Shown here: positions 1 to 12,487 of the stretch, one piece after another
Numbering within the stretch: the first letter of the stretch is position 1
How the letters are laid out: each line of letters starts with the position of its first letter
Source: Burkholderiales bacterium
Lineage (GTDB): Bacteria > Pseudomonadota > Gammaproteobacteria > Burkholderiales > SG8-39
Assembly: GCA_035514595.1 (NCBI GenBank)
Contig: DATKAX010000172.1
Coordinates: forward strand, 1-57,891
Length of the DNA stretch: 57,891 nt
Direction of reading: 5' to 3'
Translations under genes and position numbers: made by a program
Notes under the pieces: generated by a model
The model's database searches: none
Told to the model about the DNA's origin: nothing
What the model saw: the letters and a program-made list of their open reading frames with translations, nothing else

Positions 1-210
1 GGCCGATCGAATCCGTACTTACGCCAGCTGAGTGATACCAAAGTCCTCGAACACGGCGCGGAGATTGTGCGGCGGTTGATGCCTCACCTTCTGAAGGGCG
101 GCCCCGGTTACGTTGCGGAGGTCGTCAACCCAATGATGGAAGAGTTCACGCACTTTCAAGAGGAAGCGAGCCATCGTGCCCTGGACTGGCGAGACATACC
201 GAAGCCCTAA
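1..210 (+). CDS. 3' end of a cassette-borne hypothetical protein (5' end outside the window)
   Basis: Frame 1 is open from base 1 to TAA at 208-210 (...LEHGAEIVRRLMPHLLKGGPGYVAEVVNPMMEEFTHFQEEASHRALDWRDIPKP*). Its composition is more protein-like than the Arg/Trp-rich antisense ORF 19..309. The stop codon sits inside the R'' box of the following attC, as is common for cassettes. Confidence 0.4.
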   Translation, partial: GRSNPYLRQLSDTKVLEHGAEIVRRLMPHLLKGGPGYVAEVVNPMMEEFTHFQEEASHRALDWRDIPKP

Positions 211-271
211 CCACCGCATCCACGCCGACGCGCGCAAGAGCGGCGCGCGCGGGTGATGCGGAACGTTGAGG
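205..271 (+). repeat. attC site (67 bp) of the first, truncated cassette
   Basis: R'' is CCCTAAC (205-211), L'' is CCGCATC (214-220), an inner stem pairs CGCGCGC with GCGCGCG (229-235/243-249), L' is GATGCGG (255-261), then a 3-nt spacer and R' GTTGAGG (265-271). The first base of R'' deviates from the RYYYAAC consensus. Confidence 0.6.
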
Positions 272-487
272 CTGTAGAAAAAGTCCCGTGTCGAACATCG
301 GCGCGTCACAACGCGATATGAGCAATTCTTCGATAAGATTGGACGTCGACGGTCAACCGAGCTGCGATCTCCTCGTAGCGTGCCTCCTCAGGCCCGACAG
401 CGACAATATTCGAAGTGACCATCAAAAACCCAGGTGTTTCGGCGGTGGGTCGACATTGACCGTTTTCGGACTTTTTCTACAGCCTCG
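266..487 (+). mobile_element. 222-bp ORF-less insert at the attC crossover point (non-coding cassette or MITE-like element)
   Basis: The insert is bounded by G|TT on both sides (265-267 and 487-489). Its termini are perfect 19-bp inverted repeats, GAGGCTGTAGAAAAAGTCC (268-286) and GGACTTTTTCTACAGCCTC (468-486). Removing it restores a canonical attC ending ...GATGCGGAAC-GTTATGC. It contains no convincing ORF. A weak internal attC candidate has R'' GGTCAAC at 350-356 and R' GTTATGC at 487-493. Confidence 0.5.
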
Positions 488-526
488 TTATGCGGCTTAC
501 TAACCGTTGCACGAACGTCTAATTTC

Positions 527-943
527 ATGGCCGTTGCCGAAAAGCTGTGCTGGGAGGTTTTGACGAGCTGTAAGGGGCAGTCCGTCTCGGCCAAGTGGCT
601 AAAAGGTGATCACGCAACCGATCCACCGCTGGAGAGCGCTTTGCCGTTGTTTGTCTTGGAACGCGATTTGGTTTTGCGGCATACGAAGCAGCAGATCGAG
701 GACAGCCTGTACTTCTTGGAAAAACGTGGCTATTTGCGCCGGCATGGGTTTCACGGATTAACGCGAGTGGTCTTTCAATTGTCCGATTCCGCCCTTTCGG
801 TGCTTGAGGCAGGCTCGTTTTCCGCAGAGGAGCAACGCGCCTTTCGCGAAGCCCTCTTCGACGCGAAGCAGCCGGGGCTCTGGGGCTTTAAGTTCAACTT
901 GGGTGAGGCGTGGAGACGGTTCAAGAAATTTCGCACGCGCTAG
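527..943 (+). CDS. Cassette-borne hypothetical protein, 138 aa (possible winged-helix-like segment)
   Basis: This is ORF 434..943 trimmed to ATG 527, because the cassette boundary G|TT lies at 487/488. I recognised no family. The segment YFLEKRGYLRRHG is reminiscent of a wHTH recognition region. The stop TAG at 941-943 lies just before the attC. Confidence 0.55.
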   Translation: MAVAEKLCWEVLTSCKGQSVSAKWLKGDHATDPPLESALPLFVLERDLVLRHTKQQIEDSLYFLEKRGYLRRHGFHGLTRVVFQLSDSALSVLEAGSFSAEEQRAFREALFDAKQPGLWGFKFNLGEAWRRFKKFRTR

Positions 944-947
944 CGCC

Positions 948-1073
948 GCATAACAACCGGTTGCAGCGGACGGTGACACGGCGTGGCGGGCGCGCCGCAA
1001 GTGCGGCATTTCATTCTGCACATGCGGCGCGCTGGACACGTGGTCGCGCCGCCGCTGAACCGGAATGTTAGGT
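948..1073 (+). repeat. attC site (126 bp)
   Basis: R'' is GCATAAC (948-954), followed by spacer AA and L'' CCGGTT with one extra G. The right arm is AACCGG, spacer AAT, then R' GTTAGGT (1067-1073). Confidence 0.7.
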
Positions 1074-1113
1074 GTCTCAATAAGCGACCGGGCGTTTACG
1101 CGGGGGAGGGGCA

Positions 1114-1902
1114 ATGCCGGAGATGTTCGCGAACGCGATCGGCTATGAGCAATTGATGGGACGGTGGAGCGTCCGGTTGGCCCCACTTTATGCCGATTTC
1201 GCAAGGGTGCGGGATTCCGGCAGGATCCTGGACGTCGGGTGCGGGACAGGCGCGTTGGCGAAAGTCGTCGCCGGCATGACGCGGCAGAGCGAGATAGTAG
1301 GAGTGGACCCCGCGCAATCGTTTGTCGACTACGCTCGCACGCAGGTTGAGGACCGGCGCGTCAAATTCGAAGTCGGCGACGCCATGCAATTGCCATTTCC
1401 CACGGCATCGTTCGACCAGACACTTTCGCTCCTCGTCATGATGTTTATCCCGGAGCCTGAGAAAGCGGCCACGGAAATGAGGCGGGTCACCAGACCGGGG
1501 GGAACGGTCTCTGCGTGTACGTGGGACCGCGACGGGCTGGAGTTGGCGTCAATCTTCTGGGAAGAGGCCATGAGGCTCGATCCCGGTGCTGAGGCGCGTT
1601 CCCAGAGACCTAAGCACTCCAACCGAGAGGGCCAGCTCACTGCGCTGTGGCAGTCTGCCAGCCTCGAAGAGGTCAAAGAAACGGTGCTCACGATGCAACT
1701 GCCGTTTGCTTCGTTCAACGATTTCTGGGATCCGCATCTGAGAGGCGTGGCGCCACAAGGCGCCTATGTGGCCAGTCTTTCGGAGGAGCGCCGCGAGGCA
1801 CTGCGACAGGGCTTGCACAAGCGCCTCCTCGGTAATCGACCGGATGGCGCTTTTTCCCTGCGTGCGAAGGCCCTCGCGGTCCGCGGCACGGTCCCGCACT
1901 AA
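1114..1902 (+). CDS. Class I SAM-dependent methyltransferase (Methyltransf_11-like), cassette-borne
   Basis: 262 aa. Motif I is ILDVGCGTGALAK, with an acidic residue after beta-2 (IVGVDPA) and VGDAMQLPF. A GGGAGG Shine-Dalgarno sequence lies upstream of the ATG at 1114. Confidence 0.85.
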   Translation: MPEMFANAIGYEQLMGRWSVRLAPLYADFARVRDSGRILDVGCGTGALAKVVAGMTRQSEIVGVDPAQSFVDYARTQVEDRRVKFEVGDAMQLPFPTASFDQTLSLLVMMFIPEPEKAATEMRRVTRPGGTVSACTWDRDGLELASIFWEEAMRLDPGAEARSQRPKHSNREGQLTALWQSASLEEVKETVLTMQLPFASFNDFWDPHLRGVAPQGAYVASLSEERREALRQGLHKRLLGNRPDGAFSLRAKALAVRGTVPH

Positions 1903-1917
1903 AGCTCCCATGGAGAC

Positions 1918-2004
1918 ACCTAACAACCGGCTGTTGCGCGACGCTTACGTATCGGCGCTGCTACGTCGCACCTTCTCCAGCGCGCCAAAGCCGGGACGTT
2001 AGAC
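1918..2004 (+). repeat. attC site (87 bp)
   Basis: R'' is ACCTAAC (1918-1924), followed by spacer AA and L'' CCGGCT. The right arm is AGCCGG, spacer GAC, then R' GTTAGAC (1998-2004). Confidence 0.75.
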
Positions 2005-2024
2005 ATCACGAAAAGGGGGCGCTC

Positions 2025-2915
2025 GTGGCACAGACTGCGGAAGGGGAAGCGCCAAGCCGACGCGTCTCGCTGACAAAGACGCAGCGCGAATCGGAAATTG
2101 GCGCAGAGCTCCTCTCACTGTGCCAGGCGGTGACGACTGATGGGTCGTTCTCGGACGAGGAGATTTCCTCCCTCCGTAAATGGCTGCAAGAACATAAAGG
2201 CGAGGATCTCCCCGCAATTTCTCACCTCATCCCGCTGATCGAAAACATAGTCGCCGATGGGCGCATCACCCCTGACGAGCGCCGAGAGCTTTTTATCGCG
2301 GTCGAGACTATTCTCCCTCCTGACGTTCGCGCCGTCGCAAAGACCGCTCGGCGTACTGCTGAACAACAGGAAAAGGATCGACTTCGACTTCAATGGCAAC
2401 TCGAGAAGGAACGCCAGCGCGAAGAAGGAGAACGCGATTCGCCGATCGAGCGTTGGGACTTTATGGTTGCAGGGTCAAGATATGAAGGACGGCCCGCCCT
2501 GATAGATCGGTATGCTCATGTCGGTGCACCTGCATACCTTGTCCGCGACCCGAACAACAGGTACAGCAGGAACGCGACTGAGGTGCGTACCGCGAGTGGA
2601 CACCAGATTGGTTTCGTACCGGAAGAAGACGCCACTGACATCGCACCACTTCTCGACGCAGGGCATCCCTTTCTCGCACACATCAAGAAAATACTCACGG
2701 GCGGTCGTTATCCAATACCAGTCGTTGTTGCCGAGGCCTATCGCAAAGACGCGAACGTCCAGACTCTGCCGCACCAACCAGCGCATGCACCGCGCGCCAC
2801 CTACCAAGCGGGTCGCGCATTGGGGAGGACACTACGATCTCATTTCAAATTCGCGCTGATTGCAATAGTGGTGTTCGTGGTCCTGGCATATATTGCTTGG
2901 GGCGGCAAGACGTGA
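2025..2915 (+). CDS. TerB-like / coiled-coil / HIRAN-domain protein with a C-terminal transmembrane anchor, cassette-borne
   Basis: 296 aa with a GTG start preceded by AAGGGGG. The N-terminus has TerB-like paired repeats (TTDGSFSDEEISSLRKWL and ADGRITPDERRELF). A charged coiled coil follows (EQQEKDRLRLQWQLEKERQREEGER). The HIRAN-like core is WDFMVAGSRYEGR...YLVRDPNNRYSRNATEVRTASGHQIGFVPEE. The C-terminal TM helix is FKFALIAIVVFVVLAYIAW. The stop codon lies immediately before the R'' box. Confidence 0.7.
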   Translation: MAQTAEGEAPSRRVSLTKTQRESEIGAELLSLCQAVTTDGSFSDEEISSLRKWLQEHKGEDLPAISHLIPLIENIVADGRITPDERRELFIAVETILPPDVRAVAKTARRTAEQQEKDRLRLQWQLEKERQREEGERDSPIERWDFMVAGSRYEGRPALIDRYAHVGAPAYLVRDPNNRYSRNATEVRTASGHQIGFVPEEDATDIAPLLDAGHPFLAHIKKILTGGRYPIPVVVAEAYRKDANVQTLPHQPAHAPRATYQAGRALGRTLRSHFKFALIAIVVFVVLAYIAWGGKT

Positions 2916-2916
2916 T

Positions 2917-2985
2917 GTCTAACCCGGCGCCCAACTCGGCCACGCGCCATGAAGCCGGCGCGCGCCGGTTGGCTCCACGTTAGAT
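2917..2985 (+). repeat. attC site (69 bp)
   Basis: R'' is GTCTAAC (2917-2923) and R' is GTTAGAT (2979-2985). Internal pairing is GGCGCC/GGCTCC plus a GC-rich inner stem, which is less regular than in the other sites. Confidence 0.65.
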
Positions 2986-3397
2986 GCCCACTAGGCCTAT
3001 GCGCTGTCTGCCGGCCGTGAATCTCGACACCGACGTGCCATTCTGGATATCCAAGAGCTCCTTCTTCCAGCATTTCGATCAACAAGATTTCATGTGCAGG
3101 GACGTTGAGCACGTCATCGACGCGTACTTGGAGGAATGGTTCTATGCCGACGCCAATGGAAACCGCTTATTCTTCATTCCGCCTGTCTCGGTGAGGCACA
3201 AAGTGACCCAGTTCATAAGTGGCCGGCATCGCACCGCCGTTTTGCTGCGGCATATGGAGAGCGTGCCACTCGCTTTCGACTCACGCTTTACAACCTCTGG
3301 CGAAGAGGACTGGGTATGGTCCATTGCGTCTGGGCCAGTTCAAAACGGCGTCCACATCGAGCTCCCCGACTTGCCAGTCAGAGCAGCATTGCCATGA
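2984..3397 (+). CDS. Cassette-borne hypothetical protein with a ParB/Srx-like GxHR motif
   Basis: 137 aa. ATG 2984 overlaps the core site, and an alternative ATG lies at 2999. The segment VTQFISGRHRTAVLL resembles the (D)GxHR signature of ParB/sulfiredoxin-fold proteins. I recognised no other family. Confidence 0.5.
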   Translation: MPTRPMRCLPAVNLDTDVPFWISKSSFFQHFDQQDFMCRDVEHVIDAYLEEWFYADANGNRLFFIPPVSVRHKVTQFISGRHRTAVLLRHMESVPLAFDSRFTTSGEEDWVWSIASGPVQNGVHIELPDLPVRAALP

Positions 3398-3410
3398 TTC
3401 GCGTCTGGGC

Positions 3411-3475
3411 ACCTAACAGCACGCCGCACACGGACGCGGGAACCTGATCCGATAAAGTGAACACCTCGACCTAAC
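3411..3475 (+). repeat. Degenerate attC remnants: two orphan inverse-core boxes without a core-site partner
   Basis: ACCTAAC occurs at 3411-3417, and its flank TGGGCACCTAA matches the start of the cassette at 2981. A second ACCTAAC occurs at 3469-3475. No GTTRRRY box or complementary L' arm follows either one. Confidence 0.5.
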
Positions 3476-3489
3476 GCTTGGCAGCAAAG

Positions 3490-3933
3490 ATGGTCGCAGT
3501 CTTCTACGACGAGATTTCAGCGGCCTTCGAGTTTGTAAGCGCGGCGCCGCCGATTGAGCACAGCGCGTACATTTCGCTCGATACCGGCCAGATTTTCTGG
3601 ACGTCCGAGCTCGCTTCGATGGACCAGGAACTGCCGGATGACATCGGGACGTCGGACCGCTACTTGTCCGTGCCGCACAAGAATGAACTCGACCTGGGCA
3701 AGAATCTCTCCTTGCGATTTGCCGCCCGGGAGCTCGCTGACTCCTATGGACGGGTCCAGGCCATGTTTCGGAGCAAGGGTGCGTACCGAAGGTTCAAGGA
3801 ACTGCTGGAGGACAAGGGTCTGCTTGATAGGTGGTACCAATTCGAGGCAAGGGAGAAGGAGGAAGCCCTGAGAGCGTGGTGCGCGGAGAACGGCATATGC
3901 ATCATTGAGAGCGGCGAGCAGCGAGAGACGTGA
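3490..3933 (+). CDS. UPF0158 family protein
   Basis: The sequence MVAVFYDEISAAFEFVS...YISLDTGQIFW...DRYLSVPHKNELDLG...FRSKGAYRRFKELLEDKGLLDRWYQFE resembles the UPF0158 family. ATG 3490 was chosen, with the ORF-track TTG at 3478 as an alternative. Confidence 0.6.
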   Translation: MVAVFYDEISAAFEFVSAAPPIEHSAYISLDTGQIFWTSELASMDQELPDDIGTSDRYLSVPHKNELDLGKNLSLRFAARELADSYGRVQAMFRSKGAYRRFKELLEDKGLLDRWYQFEAREKEEALRAWCAENGICIIESGEQRET

Positions 3934-3940
3934 TCGGGCC

Positions 3941-4243
3941 GTGCTGCTCGTCCGAGTCCGGCTCGCCTCAAGCTCGATCGACGGCCTCGGTGTATTCACT
4001 GTAGAGCCGAGTGCGAGAGGAACCGTGGTCTGGCGTTTCACGCCCGGATTCGATCTCGACCTCTATCCGCAGCTGCTCGAAGCACAGCCGCCACTGCTGC
4101 GCGAAGTCCTGCTGCACTACGGCTGGATCGAGTTCGGCGCCGGGCGCTACAACGTCGATGTGGCCGCGCGCGACATCGCGGCCGGCGAGGACCTGACGCT
4201 CGACTACGCGCTCCTGGAAGGGCGCGTCCCGGAGCGCCGTGAC
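3941..4243 (+). pseudogene. Degenerate SET-domain gene (no in-frame stop before 4759)
   Basis: A GTG at 3941 lies 8 nt after the UPF0158 stop. It has a SET-like N-terminus (RLASSSIDGLGVFTVEPSARGTVV) and C-terminus (ARDIAAGEDLTLDY), but the NHSxxPN block between them is absent. The frame then runs 500 nt into the convergent lipid-kinase gene. A TGA in another frame occurs at 4240-4242. Confidence 0.45.
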
Positions 4244-5164
4244 TCACTTCGGCTTCGCCTGCGGGACGAGAAACTCTACCGCGCCCTCGATCGAGAGCTC
4301 GATGCGCCCCGGCGGCGCCGGGAAATCCTCCCCCGGGGCGGGCCAGATGCGGTCATCGATGTGCATCGGATAGCCGTTCCAGGCGAAGCTCAGGCGCCGG
4401 CCGCGCCGCGAGGGAAGCATCGCGATGCGCGGCTTTTCGTTCTGCCAGCTCGCCAGAATCTCGTGCAGCCTGTCGCGCTCGGCCTCGCTCACCATGACGA
4501 TCTCCATCTGGCCGTCGCCGGGCCGGATGTCGGGAGCGAGATGCAGGTTCGGGCCGACGTAAGGCAGGATCATGGCCTCGAACATCAGGAACTCGCCCGA
4601 GACGTCCATGCCGTCGAGCGTCGCCTCGAGCGCAACCGGCGCGCAGGCCTCCAGGTCGTCCTTCAGAAGCTGCAGCGCATAGGCGACCTTGGCGTCGGCG
4701 CGCTCCAGGCTGCGGATGGTCCGGCTGGCGTCGGCGCGCGGCACCGCGCAGGCGAATAGCCCCATGCCGACGGCCTCGACGAACCCGCGCGTCCCCCAGG
4801 GTCCCGTCGCCTTCCCGATGTCGAGCTTCACGCTTCGCGGCTCCCGCCAGCCGCGAACGATGTCCTCCACCGGGAGCCCGGCGAGTCCCAGCGTTCGCGC
4901 GATGTTGTTGGCCGTTCCCGCCGGCAGCGGCGCCACCGGCGTGCCCCGGCCGAGCATGCGCTTCGCCACGCGAGCGACGGTGCCGTCGCCCCCGGCCACG
5001 GCGACGAGCTCCGCCGCCTCGTCCAGCACGCGGTCCCAGCCGTCGTCCTTCGACGACTGGTAGCGCACGCTGTGGCCGGCGTCGCGCAGCACGGCGAGGA
5101 GCCGCCCGATCTCGCCGCCTCCCGGGACGCCCGCGCCGGGGTTGTGGATCAGCGTGACGCGCAT
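4244..5164 (-). CDS. Diacylglycerol-kinase-family lipid kinase (YegS/BmrU-like)
   Basis: It has a GGDGT motif ([13 protein letters not shown]), an N-terminus [12 protein letters not shown], and PLPAGTANN. The start was moved to ATG 5164 (residue 52 of the track ORF). Confidence 0.85.
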
Positions 5165-5188
5165 GGTATTTGCTCGCAGACTCTCATC

Positions 5189-5832
5189 ATGCGCATCCTC
5201 GTGACGAACGACGACGGCGTCTATAGCCCGGGCATAGCCGCACTGGCGCAGGCCGCGGCGAGCTTCGGCGAGGTGCGCGTGGTCGCGCCCGACGTCGAGA
5301 TGTCCTCGGCGGCGCACTCGATCACCGCCTCGCGCCCCCTCAACCAGAAGCGCACGGCGATCCCCGGGCTGGATGCGTACCGCGTGGACGGCACGCCGGC
5401 CGACTGCGCGGCGCTCGGCGCATCCTGGGCCTGCGCGGCATCGCGCTTAGCGTGCCGGCGCCCGAAACGGAGCAGCCGGACTTCGAGCGGCTCGAGCCCT
5501 GGGTCGGGACCGTGCTCGAGCTGCTGCTGGAGGTCCCCGAGCTCAGGCTCGTCAACGTCAACCTGCCCGAAGGTACGCCGCGCGGGATACTCTGGACCCG
5601 CCAGTCGGTAAGGCACTACGACGGCAGGGTGGTCCCCGGCAAGGATCCGATGGGGCGCACGCATTACTGGTTCACCGTGGTTCCGGTCGAGGCGACCGAG
5701 GAAGGCACCGACCACTGGGCGTTCGACCGCGGCTACGTGTCCATGACGCCGCTGCGCCTGGACCTGACCGACGAGGCGCAGCTCGCGAGGGCGCGCGAGC
5801 ACCACTCGATGAAGAAGGTCCGCTTCGCTTGA
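5189..5832 (+). pseudogene. surE: surE (5'/3'-nucleotidase) pseudogene with an internal deletion and frameshift
   Basis: The N-terminal part [16 protein letters not shown]...[13 protein letters not shown] is in one frame (5189-~5420). The C-terminal part [15 protein letters not shown]...GTDHWAFDRGYVSMTPLRLDLT is in another frame and ends at 5832. The conserved SGINxGxNxG...YSGTVxAAxEG block (about 40 aa in E. coli SurE) is missing at the junction, ~5418-5424. Confidence 0.75.
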
Positions 5833-5839
5833 TCCCCGG

Positions 5840-6997
5840 CTACTGCGCGCGTTCCCGGCGGTGGCTGCCCGACACGATCCGGAACTCGTAGAGCCGGCAC
5901 TCGAGCGCTCCGTTCCAGAGCGGCGTTCGGGCCGAGGGCTCGAGGCGGATGAGCTTCGGCAGGCGAAGATCGGCCGTGAAGAGGTAGCAGCGCCAGCCGG
6001 CGAAGTGCCTTTTCAGCGCGTCGCCGAGCTTCGGATAGAAGCGCTCGAGCGCCTCGACGCTCCCCATGCGCTCGCCGTAGGGCGGGTTCGCCACCATGAC
6101 GCCCGCGGGGGCCGGCGCAGCGCGCTCGAGGACGTCGGTGCGCTCAAGCTTCACCCAGCGCTCCACCCCGGCAGCCGCGAGATTGCGGCGCGCCGCATCG
6201 AGCGCCTTCGGATCGTTGTCGCTGCCGTAGAGCCTGGGCTGGTGCTCCTTCTGACGGGATTCGCTTCGGACCCGCTTCCACAAGGCGGCATCGAAAGTCA
6301 CGAGCTTCTCGAATCCGAAAACGCGCTTCGCGCCGGGCGCGCGTCCGCGCGCGATGGCGGCGGCCTCGGCGAGCAGGGTGCCGGCGCCGCACATCGGATC
6401 GAGCAACGGCTCTTCAGGACGCCAGCCGGTCAGCATGACGATGCCCGCGGCGAGGTTTTCCCGGAGCGGCGCCTCGAGCGCGCCGGAGCGCCAGCCGCGC
6501 TTGAAGAGCGGCTCGCCCGAGGTGTCGAGGTAGAGGCTGCCGCGTGCGGCCTCGAGGAAGGCGTGCACGCGCACGTCGGGCTGTGCGCGCTCCACGTCCG
6601 GGCGGCGCCCCAGCGCGTCGCGAAAGCGGTCGCAGAGCGCGTCCTTGATGCGCAAGGTGGCGAACTCCAGGCTCTTGAGCGGGCTTTTCTGTGCCGTGAC
6701 GTTCACCCGCAGCGAGCGCTCCACGGTGAACAGCGCCGGCCAGTCGACCGCCTTCGCCGCCGCGTAGACCTCTGTCTCGTTGCGGTAGGCGAACTCGGCC
6801 ACCTTCCACAGCACGCGCGAGGCGACTCGCGACCAGAGGTTGACCGCATAACAGGCCGGCCAGCCGCCCGCGAACGCCACGCCGCCGGGAGCGACGCTCG
6901 CCTTCTCGCCTCCCAGGGAATGGATCTCCTGGAGAAGCAGCTTTTCCAGCCCCCGCGGACAGCTGGCGAAGAACGACTCAGAAGGGCTTGAAGACAA
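5840..6997 (-). CDS. THUMP-domain class I SAM-dependent RNA methyltransferase (RlmL N-terminal-half-like)
   Basis: 385 aa with a SAM-binding loop DPMCGAGT, the catalytic motif NPPYGER, and an N-terminal THUMP-like region. Confidence 0.85.
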   Translation of the reverse strand: MSSSPSESFFASCPRGLEKLLLQEIHSLGGEKASVAPGGVAFAGGWPACYAVNLWSRVASRVLWKVAEFAYRNETEVYAAAKAVDWPALFTVERSLRVNVTAQKSPLKSLEFATLRIKDALCDRFRDALGRRPDVERAQPDVRVHAFLEAARGSLYLDTSGEPLFKRGWRSGALEAPLRENLAAGIVMLTGWRPEEPLLDPMCGAGTLLAEAAAIARGRAPGAKRVFGFEKLVTFDAALWKRVRSESRQKEHQPRLYGSDNDPKALDAARRNLAAAGVERWVKLERTDVLERAAPAPAGVMVANPPYGERMGSVEALERFYPKLGDALKRHFAGWRCYLFTADLRLPKLIRLEPSARTPLWNGALECRLYEFRIVSGSHRRERAQ

Positions 6998-7394
6998 CCA
7001 GCAGCACCGTCGCGACGAGGATCAGCACCGGGAGCTCGTTGAACCAGCGGTACCAGACGTGGCTTTTCGTGTTGCGGCCGGCGGCGAACTCGCGCAGCAG
7101 GCGGCCGCACCACAGGTGATAGCCGGCGAGGACGGCGGCGAGCGCGATCTTGGCGTGCAGCCATCCCGAGGCGTCGCGGAACCAGCCGAGCCACAGCCAC
7201 AGGCCGAAGGCGATGGTGAGAACGGCCCCGGGCGCCATGATGCCCCAGTAGAGCTTGCGCTCCATGACCTTGAAGCGCTCCAGGGACAGCGCATCGCTCG
7301 ACTGCGCGTGGTAGACGAACAGCCGCGGCAGGTAGAACAGGCCCGCGAACCAGGTCACCATGAAAATGATGTGCAGCGACTTGACCCAGAGCAT
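6978..7394 (-). CDS. hemJ: Protoporphyrinogen IX oxidase HemJ (UPF0093)
   Basis: 138 aa and four TM helices. The N-terminus is MLWVKSLHIIFMVTWFAGLFYLPRLFVYH, and the protein ends with RWFNELPVL... Confidence 0.85.
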   Translation of the reverse strand: MLWVKSLHIIFMVTWFAGLFYLPRLFVYHAQSSDALSLERFKVMERKLYWGIMAPGAVLTIAFGLWLWLGWFRDASGWLHAKIALAAVLAGYHLWCGRLLREFAAGRNTKSHVWYRWFNELPVLILVATVLLVVFKPF

Positions 7395-8185
7395 TACTTG
7401 AGGAGCCGCCGCCGCGTCAGGATGAGGGCCACGTAGAAGCCGACGATAGCATAGGCGGCGAGCACGGCGAGGTGCAGCGCAGCCGCGCCCGCGATCTCGC
7501 CCTGGAGCAGCGGCCGCACCACGGCGACGCCGTGGTAGAGCGGCAGCGCCTTGGCGATCGCCTGCACCGCCGCGGGCAGCTGCTCGATCGGGAAGAATAT
7601 CCCGGAGAGCATCAGCATCGGCGTCAGCACGAGCGTCATGTAGTAGCTGAAGAAATCATAGCCGTTGGCGAGCGCGTTGATCGCCAGGCCGACCGCGGCG
7701 AACGCGAGGCCGACGAGCACCACCACCGGAAGCGCGGCAACCGCGGCCGCGGGGCTCGCGTAGCCGAATGCCGCGACGACGAGAAGCATGCAGGCGCCGG
7801 CAGCGAGCGCCTTGGTGGCCGCCCAGGCGCATTCGCCGGCAAGCACATCGTCGAGGGTCATCGGCGCGTTCACGATCGCCTCCCAGGTGCGCTGCACGTG
7901 CATGCGCGAGAACGCCGAGAACAGCGACTCGAAGGTGGCCGCGAACATGGTCGCCGAGCACACGAATCCCGAGGCGAGAAAGGCGAAGTACGAGGTGCCG
8001 CCGATCTCTCCCAGCACCGCGCCCAGGCCGTAGCCGAGGGCGAACAGCATGATGAGCGGATCGGCGAGGTTGCCGAGGATCGAGGGCACCGCGAGGCGCC
8101 GCCATACCAGCCAGTTGCGACGCCACACCGCGACCCAGCGCAGGCTCGGCTCGGGCGGCGCGAAAAGCGTCAAGCGGCTGCGCAT
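7394..8185 (-). CDS. ABC-2 type transporter permease (NodJ-like)
   Basis: A 263-aa polytopic protein located immediately downstream of a NodI-like ATPase gene, with an ABC-2 topology. Confidence 0.85.
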   Translation of the reverse strand: MRSRLTLFAPPEPSLRWVAVWRRNWLVWRRLAVPSILGNLADPLIMLFALGYGLGAVLGEIGGTSYFAFLASGFVCSATMFAATFESLFSAFSRMHVQRTWEAIVNAPMTLDDVLAGECAWAATKALAAGACMLLVVAAFGYASPAAAVAALPVVVLVGLAFAAVGLAINALANGYDFFSYYMTLVLTPMLMLSGIFFPIEQLPAAVQAIAKALPLYHGVAVVRPLLQGEIAGAAALHLAVLAAYAIVGFYVALILTRRRLLK

Positions 8186-8189
8186 CGCA

Positions 8190-9098
8190 TCAATCCCTCA
8201 GGTCGCGGCCGGTGAGCTTGAGGAACACATCCTCCAGGTTCGCCGGCCGGTGCAGATAAACGAGGTCGTTGTTGCCGGCGAGGTCTTTCAGCACCGGCTC
8301 GACGTTCGCGGCATAGCAGAACACGGTGTCGCCGGCGCGCTCCACGCGCGCCGCAAGATGCCGCGCGCGCGCCATCCAGGCCTCGTAGCCGGGCCCGTGC
8401 ACCTCGACCACCTGCGGCTCGATGTGCTGCGCGATCAGCTTGCGCGGCGTACCCTGCGTGATGATGCGCCCGCGATCCATGATCGCGAGCCGGTGGCACA
8501 GGCGCTCGGCCTCCTCCATGAAATGCGTGGTCAGCAGCAGCGTCGTTCCCTCCTGCGTCAGGCGCCGCAGCCGCTCCCAGATCAGGTGCCGCGCCTGCGG
8601 ATCGAGGCCGGTGGTCGGCTCGTCCATGATCACGAGCTGCGGCTCGTTGACCAGCGCCCGGGCGAGCGTCAGGCGCCTTTTCATCCCGCCGGAGAGCGTG
8701 CCGATGCGCGCATCGCCGCGGCCGGCGAGCCCGGCAAACTCGAGCAGCGCCGGCACGCGCGGGCGCATGCGCTTCGCGTCGAGACCGAAGTAGCGCGCGT
8801 ACACCAGCAGGTTCTCGGTCACGGTGAAGTCCGGATCGAGGTTATCGAACTGCGGCACCACGCCGACGCGCGCGCGCGCCTGGCGTGCGCGCGCCGGCAC
8901 CGGCTCGCCGAGCAGCTCGATCGAGCCGGAGTCCGGATGCGTCAGCCCGAGGCAAAGCTTGAGCGTGGTGGTCTTGCCGGCGCCGTTCGGTCCGAGCAGG
9001 CCGAAGCACTCGCCGGGCTTCACCTCGAGGTCGACACCGCTCACGACCTCGAGCGCGCCGTAGGACTTGCGCAGCGCGCGCGCCGACAGGACGCTCAT
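8190..9098 (-). CDS. ABC transporter ATP-binding protein (NodI-like)
   Basis: Walker A is GPNGAGKTT, the signature motif is LSGGMKRR, and Walker B is [11 protein letters not shown]. The start [11 protein letters not shown] at 9098 was set by ORF arithmetic (302 aa). Confidence 0.9.
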
Positions 9099-9688
9099 CG
9101 CCAGCAGGATTCGACGATCGTGCGCAGCAGCTGGAGCTTGCGGTGGAAGAAGTGGTCGGCACCGGGTGCGAGCACGACCGGCAGCTCCTGCGGCCGCGCC
9201 CAATCGAGCACCGCAGCGAGCGGAACGGTCTCGTCGTGCTCGCCGTGGATCACCAGCGTGCCGGGGGGAACCCGCGGCACCTCGAAGCTCGAGACCGCCA
9301 CCCCCACGAGCACCAGGCGTTCCGGCCGCACGCGCGTCGCGAGCCGCGCCTGCATGGCGGCGCCGAAGGAGAAGCCCGCCAGCACGTACGGCTTCGGCTT
9401 CAGCCGGTCCAGCACGGCGGCCAGATCCTCGACTTCCCCCGCGCCCTCGTCGAAGCGGCCCTCGCTCGAGCCCACGCCACGAAAGTTCGGCCGCCAGGTC
9501 TCGTATCCCAGCGCGGCGAGCGTGCGCGCGAGGGTTTGCACCACCTTGTTGTCCAGCGTGCCGCCGAAAAGCGGGTGCGGGTGCGCGATCAGCGCGGCGC
9601 CCCGCGCAGCCGTTTCCGGCTCGTCCACCGCGCACTCGATCCGGCCCGCGGGCCCGGGCACGAACTCGCGACGCGTGCTCGCGCGCAT
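9095..9688 (-). CDS. Alpha/beta hydrolase
   Basis: 197 aa with a nucleophile elbow AGFSFGA, plus HPHPLFGGT and GEHDETVP. It shows an ATGA overlap with the downstream ATPase gene. Confidence 0.8.
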
Positions 9689-9996
9689 TACATGCGCAGC
9701 CGCTCGACGACGCGCCCGTTCCTCAGGTGCTCCTCGATGATCTCGTCGATGTCCGAGCGGTCGACGTAGGTGTACCAGACCGCCTCGGGATAGACCACGA
9801 CGCAGGGCCCTTCCTCGCAGCGGTCGAGGCAGCCCGCCTGGTTGATGCGCAGCTTGCCCGGGCCGGAGAGCCCCAGCGCCTTGACGCGGCTCTTCGCGTA
9901 ATCGCGCATCTGGGAGGCGCCCTTGTCGTTGCAGCAGGTACGGCCGCCATCGCGCTGGTTGCAGCAAAAGAAGACGTGCCGGGAGTAATAGGACAT
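9688..9996 (-). CDS. Thioredoxin-like (2Fe-2S) ferredoxin domain protein
   Basis: 102 aa. The cysteine pattern is [14 protein letters not shown]...[11 protein letters not shown]. The start [10 protein letters not shown] lies at 9996. Confidence 0.8.
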
Positions 9997-10016: not shown

Positions 10017-11081
10017 CTAACTGACCGGTTCGCGCCGCCGCGCCGCGAGCAGGATGAGGTAGGCCGCCGCGACGTATGCCCACGACGCGCTCACCACGCG
10101 CGTCAGGCCGTTGAAGTTGAGGAAGTGCCCCTGCTGCCAGACCTGGAGCGTCGCAGCGAGGTACGGGTTCGGCGGCGCCAGGTTGACGAGCACGGTGGCC
10201 GCCATGATCAGCACCGCGGCGGCCGCGAGGCGCGCGGTGCGGGGCAGCGCCATCGCGGCGAGCGCGAGCACGATGCCGGCCGCGAGCCCCCGCCAAGCGC
10301 CAGGCGTGAGCCAGGCAAGCACGTTCTCTGCGCGCATCAGCACTGCGAACGCCACGGTTTTCACCGCCACCGCGGCCGCGACCAGCGCCAGGAAGAACGC
10401 GCGCGCCGGCTGCGCGCGCGCGGCGAGCGCGGACACCAGCAGGCCGACCCCGACCAGGTTCGCCGCCGCGGTGATCGCTTCAATCGCGACGAAGAACTGG
10501 ACGCTTCGCGCCCGGCCCTCGCCGGCGGCGAGGAGATCGCGCAGGTCGCCGGCGGCGAACAGCAGCGTCGCCGGGTTGAGCTGCATGAACAGCCACAGGG
10601 CGAGCAGCACGAGGCCCAGATCGACCTCGATCCCGGGCAGGAACGCGGTGGTCCGAAAGCGCCTGAGCGGGCCGCTGGCAATCAGCCGCGGTGCAGCCGC
10701 GAGCGCGATGACGGCCCCGACGGCGGCGCCCGCGACGTTGCACAGCACGTCGAGGTTCGAGGCGATGCGCGTAGGAAGAAAGGTCTGCAGCGCCTCGAGC
10801 GAGAGCGACAGCAGCAGCGCGCTCGCGGTCGCGATCGCGAGCGCGCCCGCGCCTGCCACCCGCGGCTGCAGCGCGACGACGCATAGGAAACCGTACGGGA
10901 CGTAACCAAGCACGTCCGCGACGACATCGAAGCCGGTGACATATTGCGGCCAGGGCGCGGAGAGGTACGCGAGCGCGGACAGGCCGTGATCCCGCCAGCC
11001 CGCCAACGGATACAGCGATGCATAGGCCACGAGCGCGACGTAGACCGCGAACAGGATCCGCGCCAGCGGGGAGGCGTGCAT
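10017..11081 (-). CDS. VanZ family membrane protein with a long polytopic C-terminal extension
   Basis: 354 aa. The VanZ-like N-terminal part contains LEALQTFLPTRIASNLDVLCNVAGAAVG. The start MHASPLARIL at 11081 overlaps the upstream stop by 1 nt. Confidence 0.75.
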   Translation of the reverse strand: MHASPLARILFAVYVALVAYASLYPLAGWRDHGLSALAYLSAPWPQYVTGFDVVADVLGYVPYGFLCVVALQPRVAGAGALAIATASALLLSLSLEALQTFLPTRIASNLDVLCNVAGAAVGAVIALAAAPRLIASGPLRRFRTTAFLPGIEVDLGLVLLALWLFMQLNPATLLFAAGDLRDLLAAGEGRARSVQFFVAIEAITAAANLVGVGLLVSALAARAQPARAFFLALVAAAVAVKTVAFAVLMRAENVLAWLTPGAWRGLAAGIVLALAAMALPRTARLAAAAVLIMAATVLVNLAPPNPYLAATLQVWQQGHFLNFNGLTRVVSASWAYVAAAYLILLAARRREPVS

Positions 11082-12487
11082 TACCTGCGCCCGAGCAGTG
11101 ACCCGAAGATCATCCCGAGGAACGAGAAACCCAGCCCGACGAGCTGCGGCGGGATCAGCGCCTCGGGGGCGACGGCCTCCAGGAGCAGCCAGCTCGCGAG
11201 GCCCAGCACCACAGCGGCCAGCGCGCCGGCCGTGGTCGAGCGCTTCCAGTAAAGGCCGAGCGCGAGCGGCGCGAAGGCCGAGACCAGCGTCACCTTGTAG
11301 GCGTTTTGCACCATCTGGTAGATGCTCGCGTCGCTCGCCAGCGCGAACGCCATGACGCCGACGCCGAACAGCACGAGCACCACGCGCATGGTGAGCAGGA
11401 ACTGCCGATCGCCCATGCGCGGCATGAACGGCCGCAGCACGTTCTCCGTGAACAGCGTGGTCGGCGCGAGCAGCGCTCCCGACGCCGAGGACATGATGGC
11501 CGAGAGCAGCGCGCCGAAGAACATGACCTGGGCCAGGAGCGGCGTGTGCCCCAGGATCAGGTTCGGCAGGATCAGCTGGTTCTGGTTCTCGTCGCCGGCG
11601 AGTAGCGGCGCCACCATCTGCGGATCGATGAGCAGCGCCGAGTAGGCGAGATAGATCGGCACGAACGCCATGCAGAAGTACGCCGCGGCGCCGAGCAGCG
11701 CCCCGCGCACCGCGGTGTCGGCGTCCTTTGCGGAGGTGACGCGCTGGAACACGTCCTGCTGCGGGATCGAGCCGAGCGCCGCGGTGAGGAACGCCGCGAT
11801 GAAGGCGAGCACGTCGCGCGCCTCGAGCCTGGGCCAGAACTCGAAGCGCCCGGCCTCGGCGGCGTGCGCCGCCACCCGTTCGAAGCCGCCCGCCGCGCCG
11901 CCCAGCAGGAAGGCGAGGTAGATCAGCCCGACGATGATGACGACGCTCTGGAAGAGATCCGTGAACGCGATCGACCACATGCCGCCGAGCAGCGTGTAGA
12001 CGAGCACCACGCCGGCGCCGAGCACGATCCCCCAGTAGAGCGAGATCGCCCCGCCCGAGAGCGTGTGGAACACCACGCCCAGCGCGGTGAACTGCGCGGA
12101 GGTCCAGCCGAGGTAGGAGAGCGTGATGCAGATGCTGGTCGCCACCTCGACCGGCTTGTTGTAGCGCTGGCGGTAGAAGTCGCCGATGGTGAGCAGGTTC
12201 AGCCGGTAGAACGCGCGCGCGAAGGCGAGCGCCACGATCACCAGGCAGAACGAGAAGCCGAAGGGGTCGGCGACGATGCCGCGCATGCCCTCCTTGAGAA
12301 AGGTCGCCGAGACTCCGAGCACGGTCTCGGCGCCGAACCAGGTGGCGAACACCAGCGCCGTGCTCATGTAGAGCGGAAGGCTCCTGCCGGCGACCACGTA
12401 GTCGCGCGAGTTGTGCACGCGCCGCGCGGCCCACAGGCCGATCGCGACAGTGACCGCGAGGTAAAGGACGACGAAGCCGATCAGCAT
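11081..12487 (-). CDS. Sodium:solute symporter family transporter
   Basis: 468 aa with about 13 TM helices. The SSS-type N-terminus is DYVVAGRSLPLYMSTALVFATWFGAETVLG. Confidence 0.85.
   Translation of the reverse strand: MLIGFVVLYLAVTVAIGLWAARRVHNSRDYVVAGRSLPLYMSTALVFATWFGAETVLGVSATFLKEGMRGIVADPFGFSFCLVIVALAFARAFYRLNLLTIGDFYRQRYNKPVEVATSICITLSYLGWTSAQFTALGVVFHTLSGGAISLYWGIVLGAGVVLVYTLLGGMWSIAFTDLFQSVVIIVGLIYLAFLLGGAAGGFERVAAHAAEAGRFEFWPRLEARDVLAFIAAFLTAALGSIPQQDVFQRVTSAKDADTAVRGALLGAAAYFCMAFVPIYLAYSALLIDPQMVAPLLAGDENQNQLILPNLILGHTPLLAQVMFFGALLSAIMSSASGALLAPTTLFTENVLRPFMPRMGDRQFLLTMRVVLVLFGVGVMAFALASDASIYQMVQNAYKVTLVSAFAPLALGLYWKRSTTAGALAAVVLGLASWLLLEAVAPEALIPPQLVGLGFSFLGMIFGSLLGRR

Follow-up and report, generated by a model that had tools for sequence, protein, structure and literature searches.

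The left end of a 57,891-nt contig from a Burkholderiales bacterium (assembly GCA_035514595.1, contig DATKAX010000172.1; hereafter, the window) raises the question of whether a row of small genes separated by palindromic sites is an integron cassette array and, if so, whether that integron is still functional. The evidence to the contrary is that intI, attI, and Pc are not seen, since the window is a complete MAG contig that ends inside cassette 1; these elements would lie to the left of position 1. No IntI-like sequence was found anywhere in the window, and the 40-mer at its left end had no exact match among the JGI metagenome contigs. Nevertheless, the region from position 1 to about 3940 very likely represents the integrase-distal end of a chromosomal integron cassette array, located between a pilT-like gene and a diacylglycerol-kinase-like (DAGK) gene. 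We classify it as a chromosomal integron in decay or a CALIN; it is genuine, but an ordinary representative of a known kind. In the proposed mechanism, each unit would be a cassette in which a single promoterless ORF precedes an attC site, whose bottom strand would fold into an imperfect hairpin with extrahelical bases that are recognized by IntI. Cleavage by IntI would fall within the R-box AAC, which corresponds to G|TT of the top strand. Recombination between two attC sites would excise cassette circles, and these could be reinserted at attI, where the Pc promoter beside intI would drive their expression. The array would have been assembled by IntI, and the local intI of this genome has probably decayed like those of its relatives (see below), leaving an array that would now be CALIN-like and eroding.

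At least four attC sites had been predicted from the sequence, and a search with an attC covariance model had been proposed as the way to check them. A Rfam scan of the window at the gathering thresholds returned zero matches and, to our knowledge, Rfam contains no attC family; therefore, 12 attC sites of plasmid-borne class 1 integrons, and nothing else, were used to build a covariance model (R1). R1 is a home-made model of 12 sequences that yields rough E values and differs from the attC model of IntegronFinder. In three MAFFT alignments, some arms (dfrA5, dfrA27, aac(6')-29b, and window sites 1 and 4) were misaligned; these alignments were kept out of model building, and a second, lineage-specific model was dropped for this reason. 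When the whole 57.9-kb window was searched on both strands with the filters off, R1 produced exactly four full-length (model positions 1 to 64) plus-strand attC matches in the left array, at positions identical to those predicted: site 1 (205 to 271; 10.7 bits; E = 2.9), site 2 (948 to 1073; 29.7 bits; E = 2.4e-5), site 3 (1918 to 2004; 14.0 bits; E = 0.36), and site 4 (2917 to 2985; 30.2 bits; E = 1.7e-5). Thus, the proposed check bore out all four sites at full length, two of them at E values of about 2e-5; sites 1, with the lowest score of the four, and 3 are each below significance when taken alone. In the other 54 kb of the window, the single comparable match (4852 to 4899; 15.9 bits) lies antisense inside a gene. 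It was rejected as an attC site: it spans 48 nt, contains mispairs, is antisense in the DAGK gene, and is conserved along with that gene in the related loci L071 and L073. Across 750 kb of related loci, false matches of R1 were rare.

The architecture of the four sites is that of known attC sites, defined here by an RYYYAAC-type R'' box and a GTTRRRY-type R' box in inverse orientation, 57 to 141 nt apart. The R''/R' boxes contain AAC/GTT in all four cases, the outer positions of the boxes conform fully or nearly so, and the sites are spaced less than 1 kb apart on a single strand. All share the order R'' (7 nt), 5 nt, L'' (7 nt), variable center, L' (6 nt), 5 to 6 nt, R' (7 nt), which is also that of the class 1 training sites, and in the covariance-model alignment, an extra base occupies position 4 of the 7-nt L'' box in each of them. 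The box order, the spacer lengths, and the extra L'' base are identical to those of class 1 attC sites (aadA1/2, aadB, blaVIM-2, aacA4, arr-3, cmlA1, estX, and others). The original prediction had recognized this canonical order; its 2-nt and 3-nt spacers describe an identical geometry in which part of the spacer has been counted as paired. The differing lengths that it gave (67, 126, 87, and 69 nt for sites 1 to 4) hold. Site 1 has the R'' box CCCTAAC and an R' box that is now a hybrid of GTT and insertion-derived GAGG, its original R' (GTTATGC, 487 to 493) lying beyond the insertion described below. Site 2 has a long variable center and the L''/L' boxes GTTGCAG/CTGAAC, the same as in the blaVIM-2 attC. 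Site 3 has canonical R and L boxes and bulge, and site 4 is the last intact attC.

Known attC sites carry extrahelical bases on the arm opposite the bottom-strand AAC, as well as an unpaired central spacer (PMC5027507). The bottom strands of sites 1 to 4 form imperfect hairpins, with z scores of -3.8, -4.6, -1.6, and -4.8 relative to dinucleotide shuffles, and the single-base bulges fall mostly on the 3' (L'') arm, that is, opposite the AAC of the bottom strand. The folding expected of the bottom strands was thus found for sites 1, 2, and 4, whereas that of site 3 does not reach significance on energy alone. The bottom strand had no consistent advantage in stability over the top strand; for site 2, it is 8 kcal/mol less stable. 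In a set of 11 distinct environmental attC sites from the window lineage and from contigs with cassette homologs, site 2 included, the L helix is 100% paired and compensatory double changes occur in six of nine pairs. Covariation was 0.44, compared to 0.10 in shuffles, none of 500 of which reached the score, in an alignment that was fitted to the model.

The units between the sites also have the boundaries expected of cassettes. The start of cassette 2 (from 487; GTTATGCGGC) and the GCCGCATAAC found at the R'' box of the same cassette are reverse complements, an uninterrupted identity of 10 nt with the flank of site 2. The corresponding matches are 12 nt for cassette 3 (start at 1067; site 3), 13 nt for cassette 4 (start at 1998; site 4), and 11 of 12 nt for cassette 5 (start at 2979; box at 3411 to 3417), compared to at most 6 nt of identity for noncognate pairs. 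After the GTT of site 1, the cognate complementarity appears only once a 219-bp insertion is discounted. Hence, of the complementary starts and flanks that had been pointed out, the cognate matches stand, and one repeat (268 to 286 and 468 to 486) is instead the pair of inverted repeats of the insertion. Collectively, the R1 matches at the exact coordinates, the geometry, the covariation, and the cognate flank complementarity identify the sites as attC, supported by an independent model, and the intervening units appear, from their sequences, to behave as cassettes.

A far more mundane reading, that the palindromes are ordinary intergenic hairpins, such as terminators or REP-like repeats, between acquired genes, is hardly credible and can be considered effectively refuted already. 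It would account for the position of all four sites just after stop codons, where terminators reside, for a site 3 that folds no better than shuffles, and for the lack of an Rfam family match. However, the sites have no T tract, they possess conserved RYYYAAC/GTTRRRY-type boxes with an asymmetric bulge, and a model derived from unrelated clinical attC sites detects them. Neither the cognate complementarity of 10 to 13 nt nor the homology to another locus that begins exactly at G|TT (see below) fits ordinary hairpins, and REP-like repeats would be expected in the other 54 kb of the window, where they were not found.

Five cassettes, one cut by the contig end, have boundaries at G|TT. Each contains one plus-strand ORF whose stop codon lies inside R'' or 1, 4, or 15 nt before it, and the array contains 1 promoter-like site against 1.2 expected by chance, in agreement with the prediction of a single promoterless ORF per unit ending at R''. 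The 3' part of the cassette 1 ORF (1 to 210; 69 codons, cut by the contig end, with a TAA inside R'') encodes the partial 69-aa protein VML57_07815, which had no matches in Pfam or NCBIfam and matched only itself in the protein database. Cassette 2 (488 to 1067; 580 bp) carries its own attC and an ORF (527 to 943; 138 aa) with no family match in Pfam or NCBIfam. Cassette 3 (1068 to 1998; 931 bp) carries a class I SAM-dependent methyltransferase gene (1114 to 1902; Pfam Methyltransf_11, E = 1.6e-23), and cassette 4 (1999 to 2979; 981 bp) carries a gene for a HIRAN-domain protein (2025 to 2915; Pfam HIRAN, E = 2.3e-14) with a C-terminal hydrophobic stretch noted by inspection. The start of cassette 4 (GTTAGACATCAC) resembles that of the aadA2 cassette (GTTAGACATCAT). 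The GC content of the cassettes is 0.56 to 0.62, compared to 0.69 for the remainder of the contig, and their GC3 is 0.57 to 0.76, compared to 0.88 to 0.92 in two neighboring core genes. Positions 463 to 2426 are reproduced at 100% in the Logan contig L001, the only other assembly of the region.

Cassette 5 (2980 to 3441, plus strand) combines an ORF (2999 to 3397; about 132 aa) with only the left half of an attC, namely, R'' (3411 to 3417) and L'' (3423 to 3429), truncated at about 3441. Its protein has no Pfam match and belongs to an uncharacterized family with 107 homologs. The DNA homology of this cassette to the unrelated metagenome contigs L065 to L068 sets in precisely at GTTAG (2979) and extends to near 3441, and the DNA upstream of these homologs is unrelated to the window. 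The attC of these copies is complete, that of L065 measuring 89 nt (37.5 bits). From these shared boundaries in another context, cassette 5 is judged to be mobile as a discrete unit. The segment 3405 to 3480 was also considered as a complete fifth attC but was rejected, since it showed no folding (z = +1.55) and, by comparison with L065, contains only the left half.

The truncated attC is followed by a remnant of about 37 to 40 nt (GAACCTGATCCGATAAAGTGAACACCTCGACCTAACGCT; 3442 to 3478, plus strand), which follows GAAC and ends in a second CCTAAC box (3470 to 3475). This sequence is common to L071 to L073 and to an unrelated cassette array, L080 (3523 to 3561), and in the window and L071, two different attC left halves are joined to it, 22 to 23 nt after R''. 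A 24-nt match in L078, within a coding region, was dismissed as chance. Next comes a UPF0158-family gene (3490 to 3933, plus strand; GC content of 0.59) with neither a canonical 5' boundary nor an attC; its own Pfam UPF0158 match is weak, and homologs with 69 to 71% identity carry PF03682. In L076 and L077, the 70% homolog P0125 is directly followed by a 31-bit attC, and the window gene is, by this comparison, apparently cassette derived, having lost both its 5' boundary and its attC. A short ORF with a weak Pfam SET match (3941 to 4250, plus strand) lies at the boundary between the array and the core genes and may be either a cassette remnant or a core gene. It is absent from L002 to L047, and in L071, positions 3886 to 4128 are replaced with 90 unrelated nt. 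The array that had been delimited at 1 to 3475 is therefore real but runs on, through the truncated attC, the 40-nt remnant, and the UPF0158 remnant, to about 3885 to 3940.

The DAGK gene (4244 to 5317, minus strand; Pfam DAGK_cat) is the first of the conserved core genes and anchors the integron locus on the right, and the order DAGK-surE-RlmL is kept in L002 to L013 and L071. attC sites or cassettes adjoin DAGK in the window, L071 to L073, L006, and L008, and judging from these neighbors, the chromosomal location is the same across this lineage; no attC or IntI matches were found beside DAGK in L002 to L005. In L006 and L071, the array is bordered on its other side by a pilT-like gene, and between it and the DAGK-like gene, both genomes retain intI pseudogenes. 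In L006, whose DAGK is only about 56% identical to that of the window, a 59-aa C-terminal fragment matches the integron integrase family TIGR02249 best (112.7 bits, compared to 77 for XerD) and is divergent from attC sites of 33 and 12 bits, 2 to 3 kb from DAGK. In L071, intI is disrupted by a frameshift, a stop codon, and an internal deletion. The leftward location predicted for intI and attI is thus borne out by intI remnants in the expected place and orientation in two relatives, but both are pseudogenes, and a working integrase or Pc is not assured. L071 is 94 to 97% identical to the window at the nucleotide level over positions 3412 to 3885 and 4129 to 9102; in place of cassettes 1 to 5, it carries a 251-aa cassette and a HicA toxin-gene cassette (Pfam) with a 70-aa ORF upstream. 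This is the cassette presence/absence polymorphism that had been anticipated: different cassettes at the same locus between nearly identical flanks.

That turnover could indicate a complete, active integron that still shuffles cassettes and whose intI, attI, and Pc lie intact immediately past the end of the contig. Three intact attC sites remain (sites 2 to 4) and, because cassette arrays often break assemblies, the missing intI is uninformative. We consider such an integron unlikely, given that intI is dead in both relatives whose left end is visible and that the window array itself is decayed; the cassette differences could predate the decay or originate from an IntI encoded elsewhere. The array is considered to be eroding because attC 1 is interrupted by a MITE-like insertion, attC 5 is truncated, and the UPF0158 cassette lacks an attC. 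In a second alternative, which we regard as highly improbable, the locus is a CALIN that at no time possessed an integrase of its own, its cassettes having been inserted at a secondary site by an integrase encoded elsewhere. CALINs are common, about 95% of them have no intI pseudogene nearby (PMC4889954), and in L067, a 1.3-kb contig that contains no intI, a cassette 5 homolog lies in noncoding DNA at a distance of about 430 nt from a helicase gene. Against such an origin, four genomes of the lineage (the window, L071, L006, and L008) have attC sites or cassettes beside DAGK, and in two of them, remnants of intI persist in divergent orientation, as is canonical. The shared DAGK locus and the divergent remnants point to an ancestral resident integron platform, in line with the preferred reading of a decaying chromosomal integron.

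The CALIN rule specifies at least two attC sites on the same strand, less than 4 kb apart, with no integron integrase nearby (Cury et al. 2016, IntegronFinder, PMC4889954). The four sites are clustered in this manner, their similarity to each other is low, the cassettes have no database names, and there is no intI in the sequence at hand; however, the contig ends in the array, so that "lacking an integrase" cannot be asserted. The relatives have an intI pseudogene beside the array, whereas only about 5% of CALINs do (PMC4889954).

Among sedentary chromosomal integrons, those of Xanthomonas adjoin ilvD and have decaying integrases, and the Vibrio superintegrons are the intact archetype. The likeness extends to a locus fixed between conserved core genes (here, pilT-like and DAGK), cassettes mostly of unknown function with a content that varies between strains, an intI that is inactivated in relatives (L006 and L071), and a toxin-antitoxin-type cassette (HicA in L071). 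Whereas large sedentary arrays have homogeneous repeats, the attC sites of the window are heterogeneous in length (67 to 126 nt) and sequence, and the part of the array that can be seen is short, with five or six cassettes. Unlike class 1 integrons, it has no resistance genes, an environmental high-GC host, and no Tn402/3'-CS context. The locus leaves the knowledge of the integron mechanism unchanged. It adds a chromosomal integron locus (pilT-like gene, intI, cassettes, and DAGK) from an uncultured soil "Burkholderiales" lineage, in which integrase decay and strain-level turnover are seen in three stages, namely, the C-terminal stub in L006, the frameshifted and deleted gene in L071, and the eroding attC sites of the window, making it useful as an example of the transition from integron to CALIN. 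Annotation of the methyltransferase, HIRAN, and UPF0158 genes and of two unknowns as cassette-borne accessory genes is also supported.

The insertion in attC 1 (268 to 486; 219 bp, with no assigned strand) sits at the G|TT crossover. It has perfect 19-bp terminal inverted repeats (268 to 286 and 468 to 486; 100% complementary), is flanked by GTT direct repeats (265 to 267 and 487 to 489), has a GC content of 0.53, and contains no gene. The independent Logan assembly breaks inside it, at 463, and no further copy was found in the window or the related loci, nor by a blastn search of plasmids. It does not qualify as an ORF-less cassette, given that, in the closed circle, GTT would form part of the loop of a perfect hairpin with a 19-bp stem and without R'' or L'' boxes. 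The unit looks like a MITE, and, as a single copy, it does not show attC targeting. Two attC halves joined to the same 40-nt sequence, which recurs in L080, together with an element on G|TT, suggest a bolder reading, to which we attach little probability: the distal junction may record an undescribed event acting on attC sites, and small nonautonomous elements could target folded attC sites, helping to inactivate chromosomal integrons. IS1111-attC elements and group IIC-attC introns likewise interrupt attC at the recombination point, but the 219-bp unit differs in having 19-bp terminal inverted repeats and a 3-bp GTT flanking repeat and in having no gene. Such repeats are not known from IS1111-type elements or from the introns. 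A group II intron was also observed inside a class 1 cassette array in L054.

By every testable criterion, the four sites at the left end of the contig are attC sites and the units that they delimit are integron cassettes (numbered 1 to 5 from left to right). An Rfam scan of the window found nothing at these sites or elsewhere. A covariance model (R1) was built from sequences unrelated to the window: class 1 integrons were located on plasmids with the IntI1 protein sequence, the annotated arrays of 13 plasmids were read, and attC sites were cut from the DNA 3' of the cassette genes. The 12 sites in the resulting alignment (A3), those of aac(6')-29a, blaVIM-2, arr-3, aacA4, aadB, aadA2, estX, a HAD hydrolase cassette, cmlA1, aadA1, qacL and aadA5, share a common layout of R'' (7), 5 nt, L'' (7, including an extra base at position 4), a centre, L' (6), 5 to 6 nt and R' (7), and the structure of this layout, with 7 + 9 pairs, was given to R1. 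Applied without filters to the two strands of the entire window, R1 matched all four sites full length on the plus strand, at the coordinates of the original prediction to the base: site 4 at 2917-2985 (30.2 bits, E 1.7e-5), site 2 at 948-1073 (29.7 bits, E 2.4e-5), site 3 at 1918-2004 (14.0 bits, E 0.36) and site 1 at 205-271 (10.7 bits, E 2.9). The L'' bulge is present in 4/4 of these matches. The sole comparable match elsewhere in the window (4852-4899, plus strand, 15.9 bits) is 48 nt long, contains mispairs and lies antisense inside the diacylglycerol-kinase-like (DAGK) gene (4244-5317, minus strand), along with which it is conserved in the related contigs L071 and L073; it is a probable false positive. 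Across 750 kb of related loci, the only R1 match with an E value of <5 is a genuine array site.

The predicted secondary structure of the sites points the same way. The bottom strands of sites 1 to 4 fold into imperfect hairpins, with z scores of -3.8, -4.6, -1.6 and -4.8 relative to dinucleotide shuffles, site 3 being the weak one. As anticipated, single-base bulges are mostly found on the 3' arm, that is, the arm opposite the bottom-strand AAC, in agreement with the location of extrahelical attC bases (Nivina et al. 2016, PMC5027507). Covariation was assessed on 12 matches (11 distinct) from the window lineage and from contigs with homologues of the window cassette genes. Every cell of the L helix is paired (100%), and in 6 of the 9 pairs both sides have changed. 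The score for covariation reaches 0.44 versus 0.10 in shuffles (0/500 reach it) and at most 0.15 with slid partners, in an alignment that was fitted to R1 and so favours the structure. The outer R positions pair in 80%, less than the L helix, as expected given that R' is supplied by the neighboring cassette. Separately, a fetched locus, L012, contains a lone 60-nt palindrome (287-346) that lies 9.7 kb from DAGK, on the far side relative to the integron locus; the attC model scores it at 25.3 bits, and its opposite strand at 10.6 bits.

The units themselves behave as cassettes. The start of each cassette, from the G of R', is the reverse complement of the next downstream R'' flank, with uninterrupted complementary runs of 10 nt (487 versus site 2), 12 nt (1067 versus site 3) and 13 nt (1998 versus site 4) and 11/12 complementary positions for 2979 versus the box at 3411-3417; non-cognate combinations reach 6 nt at most. 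The same complementarity is shared by class 1 cassettes, for example, that of aadA2, which starts with GTTAGACATCAT and ends with ATGATGTCTAAC. One of the repeats originally counted towards a circle signature belongs instead to an insertion at 268-486. Each unit carries one plus-strand ORF with its stop codon inside R'' or 1 to 15 nt 5' of it, and sigma-70-like promoters are not enriched (1 found versus 1.2 expected), as foreseen for promoterless cassettes. Cassettes 2, 3 and 4 measure 580, 931 and 981 bp. Encoded in the array are a 138-aa protein without a family, a class I methyltransferase, one protein with a HIRAN domain, a ∼132-aa member of an unnamed family and a UPF0158 protein. The GC content is 57 to 62% in the first 4 kb versus ∼70% in the other 54 kb, and GC3 is 0.57 to 0.76 in the array ORFs versus 0.88 to 0.92 in two adjacent core genes.

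Cassette 5 provides direct evidence of mobility. Its ∼132-aa protein has 107 database relatives, and in four JGI contigs (L065 to L068) a homologue with 80% identity lies ahead of an 89-nt attC (37.5 bits). The DNA upstream is unrelated between these contigs and the window; homology opens exactly at GTTAG(A/G)TGCCCACTAGG (window 2979), extends over the ORF and both boxes (R'' and L'') and is lost near window 3441, beyond which L065 carries the remainder of its attC and the window does not. Cassette 5 therefore moves as a discrete unit, and in the window its attC is cut down to the left half; in keeping with this, no fold is obtained for 3405-3480 (z +1.55). In one of the four contigs, L067 (1-560), the homologue lies in non-coding DNA ∼430 nt from a divergent DEAD-box helicase gene, with no intI on the 1.3-kb contig, and may mark the beginning of a CALIN (a cluster of attC sites lacking an integron-integrase) or a cassette that lies at a secondary site.

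The array had been taken to end at 3475 and in fact continues to ∼3940. The half attC (3411 to ∼3441) is followed by a ∼40-nt piece with a second CCTAAC box (3470-3475) and then by a UPF0158 gene (3490-3933) whose GC content, 0.59, is still low. In other metagenomes (L076 and L077), a 70%-identical UPF0158 homologue lies directly 5' of its own 31-bit attC; the homologue in L076 has a GTTAGGC box in front of it, to which its own R'' flank is complementary, and at least five attCs make up the L077 array. The window gene lacks both an attC and a canonical 5' boundary and is therefore a fixed cassette remnant. The conserved core sequence begins again at 4129. A short SET-like ORF (3941-4250) straddles the boundary between array and core and overlaps the stop codon of the DAGK gene; in L071, window 3886-4128 is swapped for 90 unrelated nt and this ORF is rearranged differently, so that a SET-domain-like gene appears to have been truncated differently in the two strains.

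A search with the UPF0158 protein identified three contigs, L071 (ENA), L072 (JGI) and L073 (Logan), that are 94 to 97% identical to window 3412-3885 and 4129-9102 and thus derive from a very close relative. L071 contains, in order, a pilT-like gene end, a degraded intI that lies on the opposite strand, a 251-aa cassette whose attC scores 28.5 bits, a second cassette in which a 70-aa ORF precedes a gene matching the Pfam HicA toxin, a truncated attC, the same UPF0158 segment and DAGK. None of window cassettes 1 to 5 was found in L071, where other cassettes are in place, which is the presence/absence polymorphism that the original prediction called for. The L071 intI (560-905, minus strand) retains an N-terminal piece, RKQLIERFPEAIRAKHYSRRTEEAYW, and a C-terminal piece, HLLEGGYDI, after which come a frameshift and then RTVQELLG...MNRGG with a stop, the middle having been deleted. 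A more distant relative, L006, keeps the synteny orf8049-orf7394-RlmL-surE-DAGK and shows the final part of the same pilT-like gene, then a stub made of 59 C-terminal aa of IntI (11058-11237) and fused to half an attC; it also has 3 or 4 cassettes (one unknown, OsmC, GGACT and possibly a fourth unknown), whose attCs score 12 and 33 bits and lie on the strand that diverges from intI. Compared with IntI1 residues 274-328, the stub has 80% identity, and its best match is the TIGR02249 integron integrase (112.7 bits versus 77 for XerD). In a further relative, L008, a collapsed attC of the same type, GCCTAACAGCGCG|GACGTTGGAT (9895-9917, minus strand), has lost its entire L''-centre-L' part; it lies between cassette-like ORFs that adjoin the conserved DAGK neighborhood at the same place as the integron locus, and next to it is an ORF for a putative acetyltransferase (function by inspection only).

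The integron is thus resident at the pilT-like/DAGK locus, with intI on the left and divergent, the orientation that had been predicted and that is seen in L006 and L071. The integrase is dead in both of these relatives, the two in which the left end is visible, and they represent two stages of integron-integrase decay at one locus. The window is an entire contig that ends within a gene, and the record holds no sequence left of position 1: a 69-codon open frame at 1-207 is identical to the "partial" hypothetical protein VML57_07815, whose contig matches the window. The first 40 bases have no match in JGI metagenome contigs, and window 463-2426 is present at 100% identity in an independent Logan assembly of run SRR8556377. 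The DAGK-like protein is 57 to 59% identical to its best relative among GTDB species representatives. By the operational terms of IntegronFinder (PMC4889954), the visible part would be called a CALIN, but the array runs off the contig end, where intI, attI and Pc would lie, and the relatives place the locus among the rarer kind of CALIN with an intI pseudogene alongside. In the way it works the locus resembles a sedentary chromosomal integron, and it is derived from one; it represents a known system, of which it is an ordinary and well-supported case from an uncultured soil lineage. The integron interpretation is supported overall, corrected in the extent of the array, the repeat assigned to the insertion and the integrase, which is probably decayed.

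The sole potentially new aspect is a pair of small sequences tied to damaged attC sites. The insertion at 268-486 (219 bp) has perfect 19-bp terminal inverted repeats (GAGGCTGTAGAAAAAGTCC), is flanked by GTT on both sides (265-489) and sits exactly on the G|TT crossover of attC 1; taking it out restores R' as GTTATGC together with the 10-nt complementarity with site 2. With 53% GC and no plausible gene, the unit looks like a MITE. No second copy was found, whether in the window, in the fetched loci or among PLSDB plasmids, and a single copy proves no preference for attC sites. The break in the Logan assembly falls 5 nt 5' of the right repeat. The 40-nt piece, GAACCT[G/C]ATCCGATAAAGTGAACACCTCGACCTAACGCT, follows GAAC and ends in CCTAAC. 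It is joined to two different attC left halves, that of cassette 5 in the window (3411-3478) and that of the HicA-gene cassette in L071 (2389-2454), 23 and 22 nt from R'', respectively. The piece was found once in an unrelated cassette array (L080, 3523-3561), where similarity again stops 3 nt past CCTAAC. There it is in frame with the upstream ORF, so it may be what is left of the 3' end of a cassette gene with its R'' box; alternatively, it may be one end of an element inserting beside GAAC. If small elements target attC, many copies of GAGGCTGTAGAAAAAGTCC or GAACCTSATCCGATAAAGTGAACACCTCGACCTAAC would be expected, mainly inside attC sites; single copies would be accidents. In a class 1 integron (NZ_CP038280.1, 5198-6647), a group II intron reverse-transcriptase gene lies directly 3' of a yjjG cassette gene, at the expected attC position.
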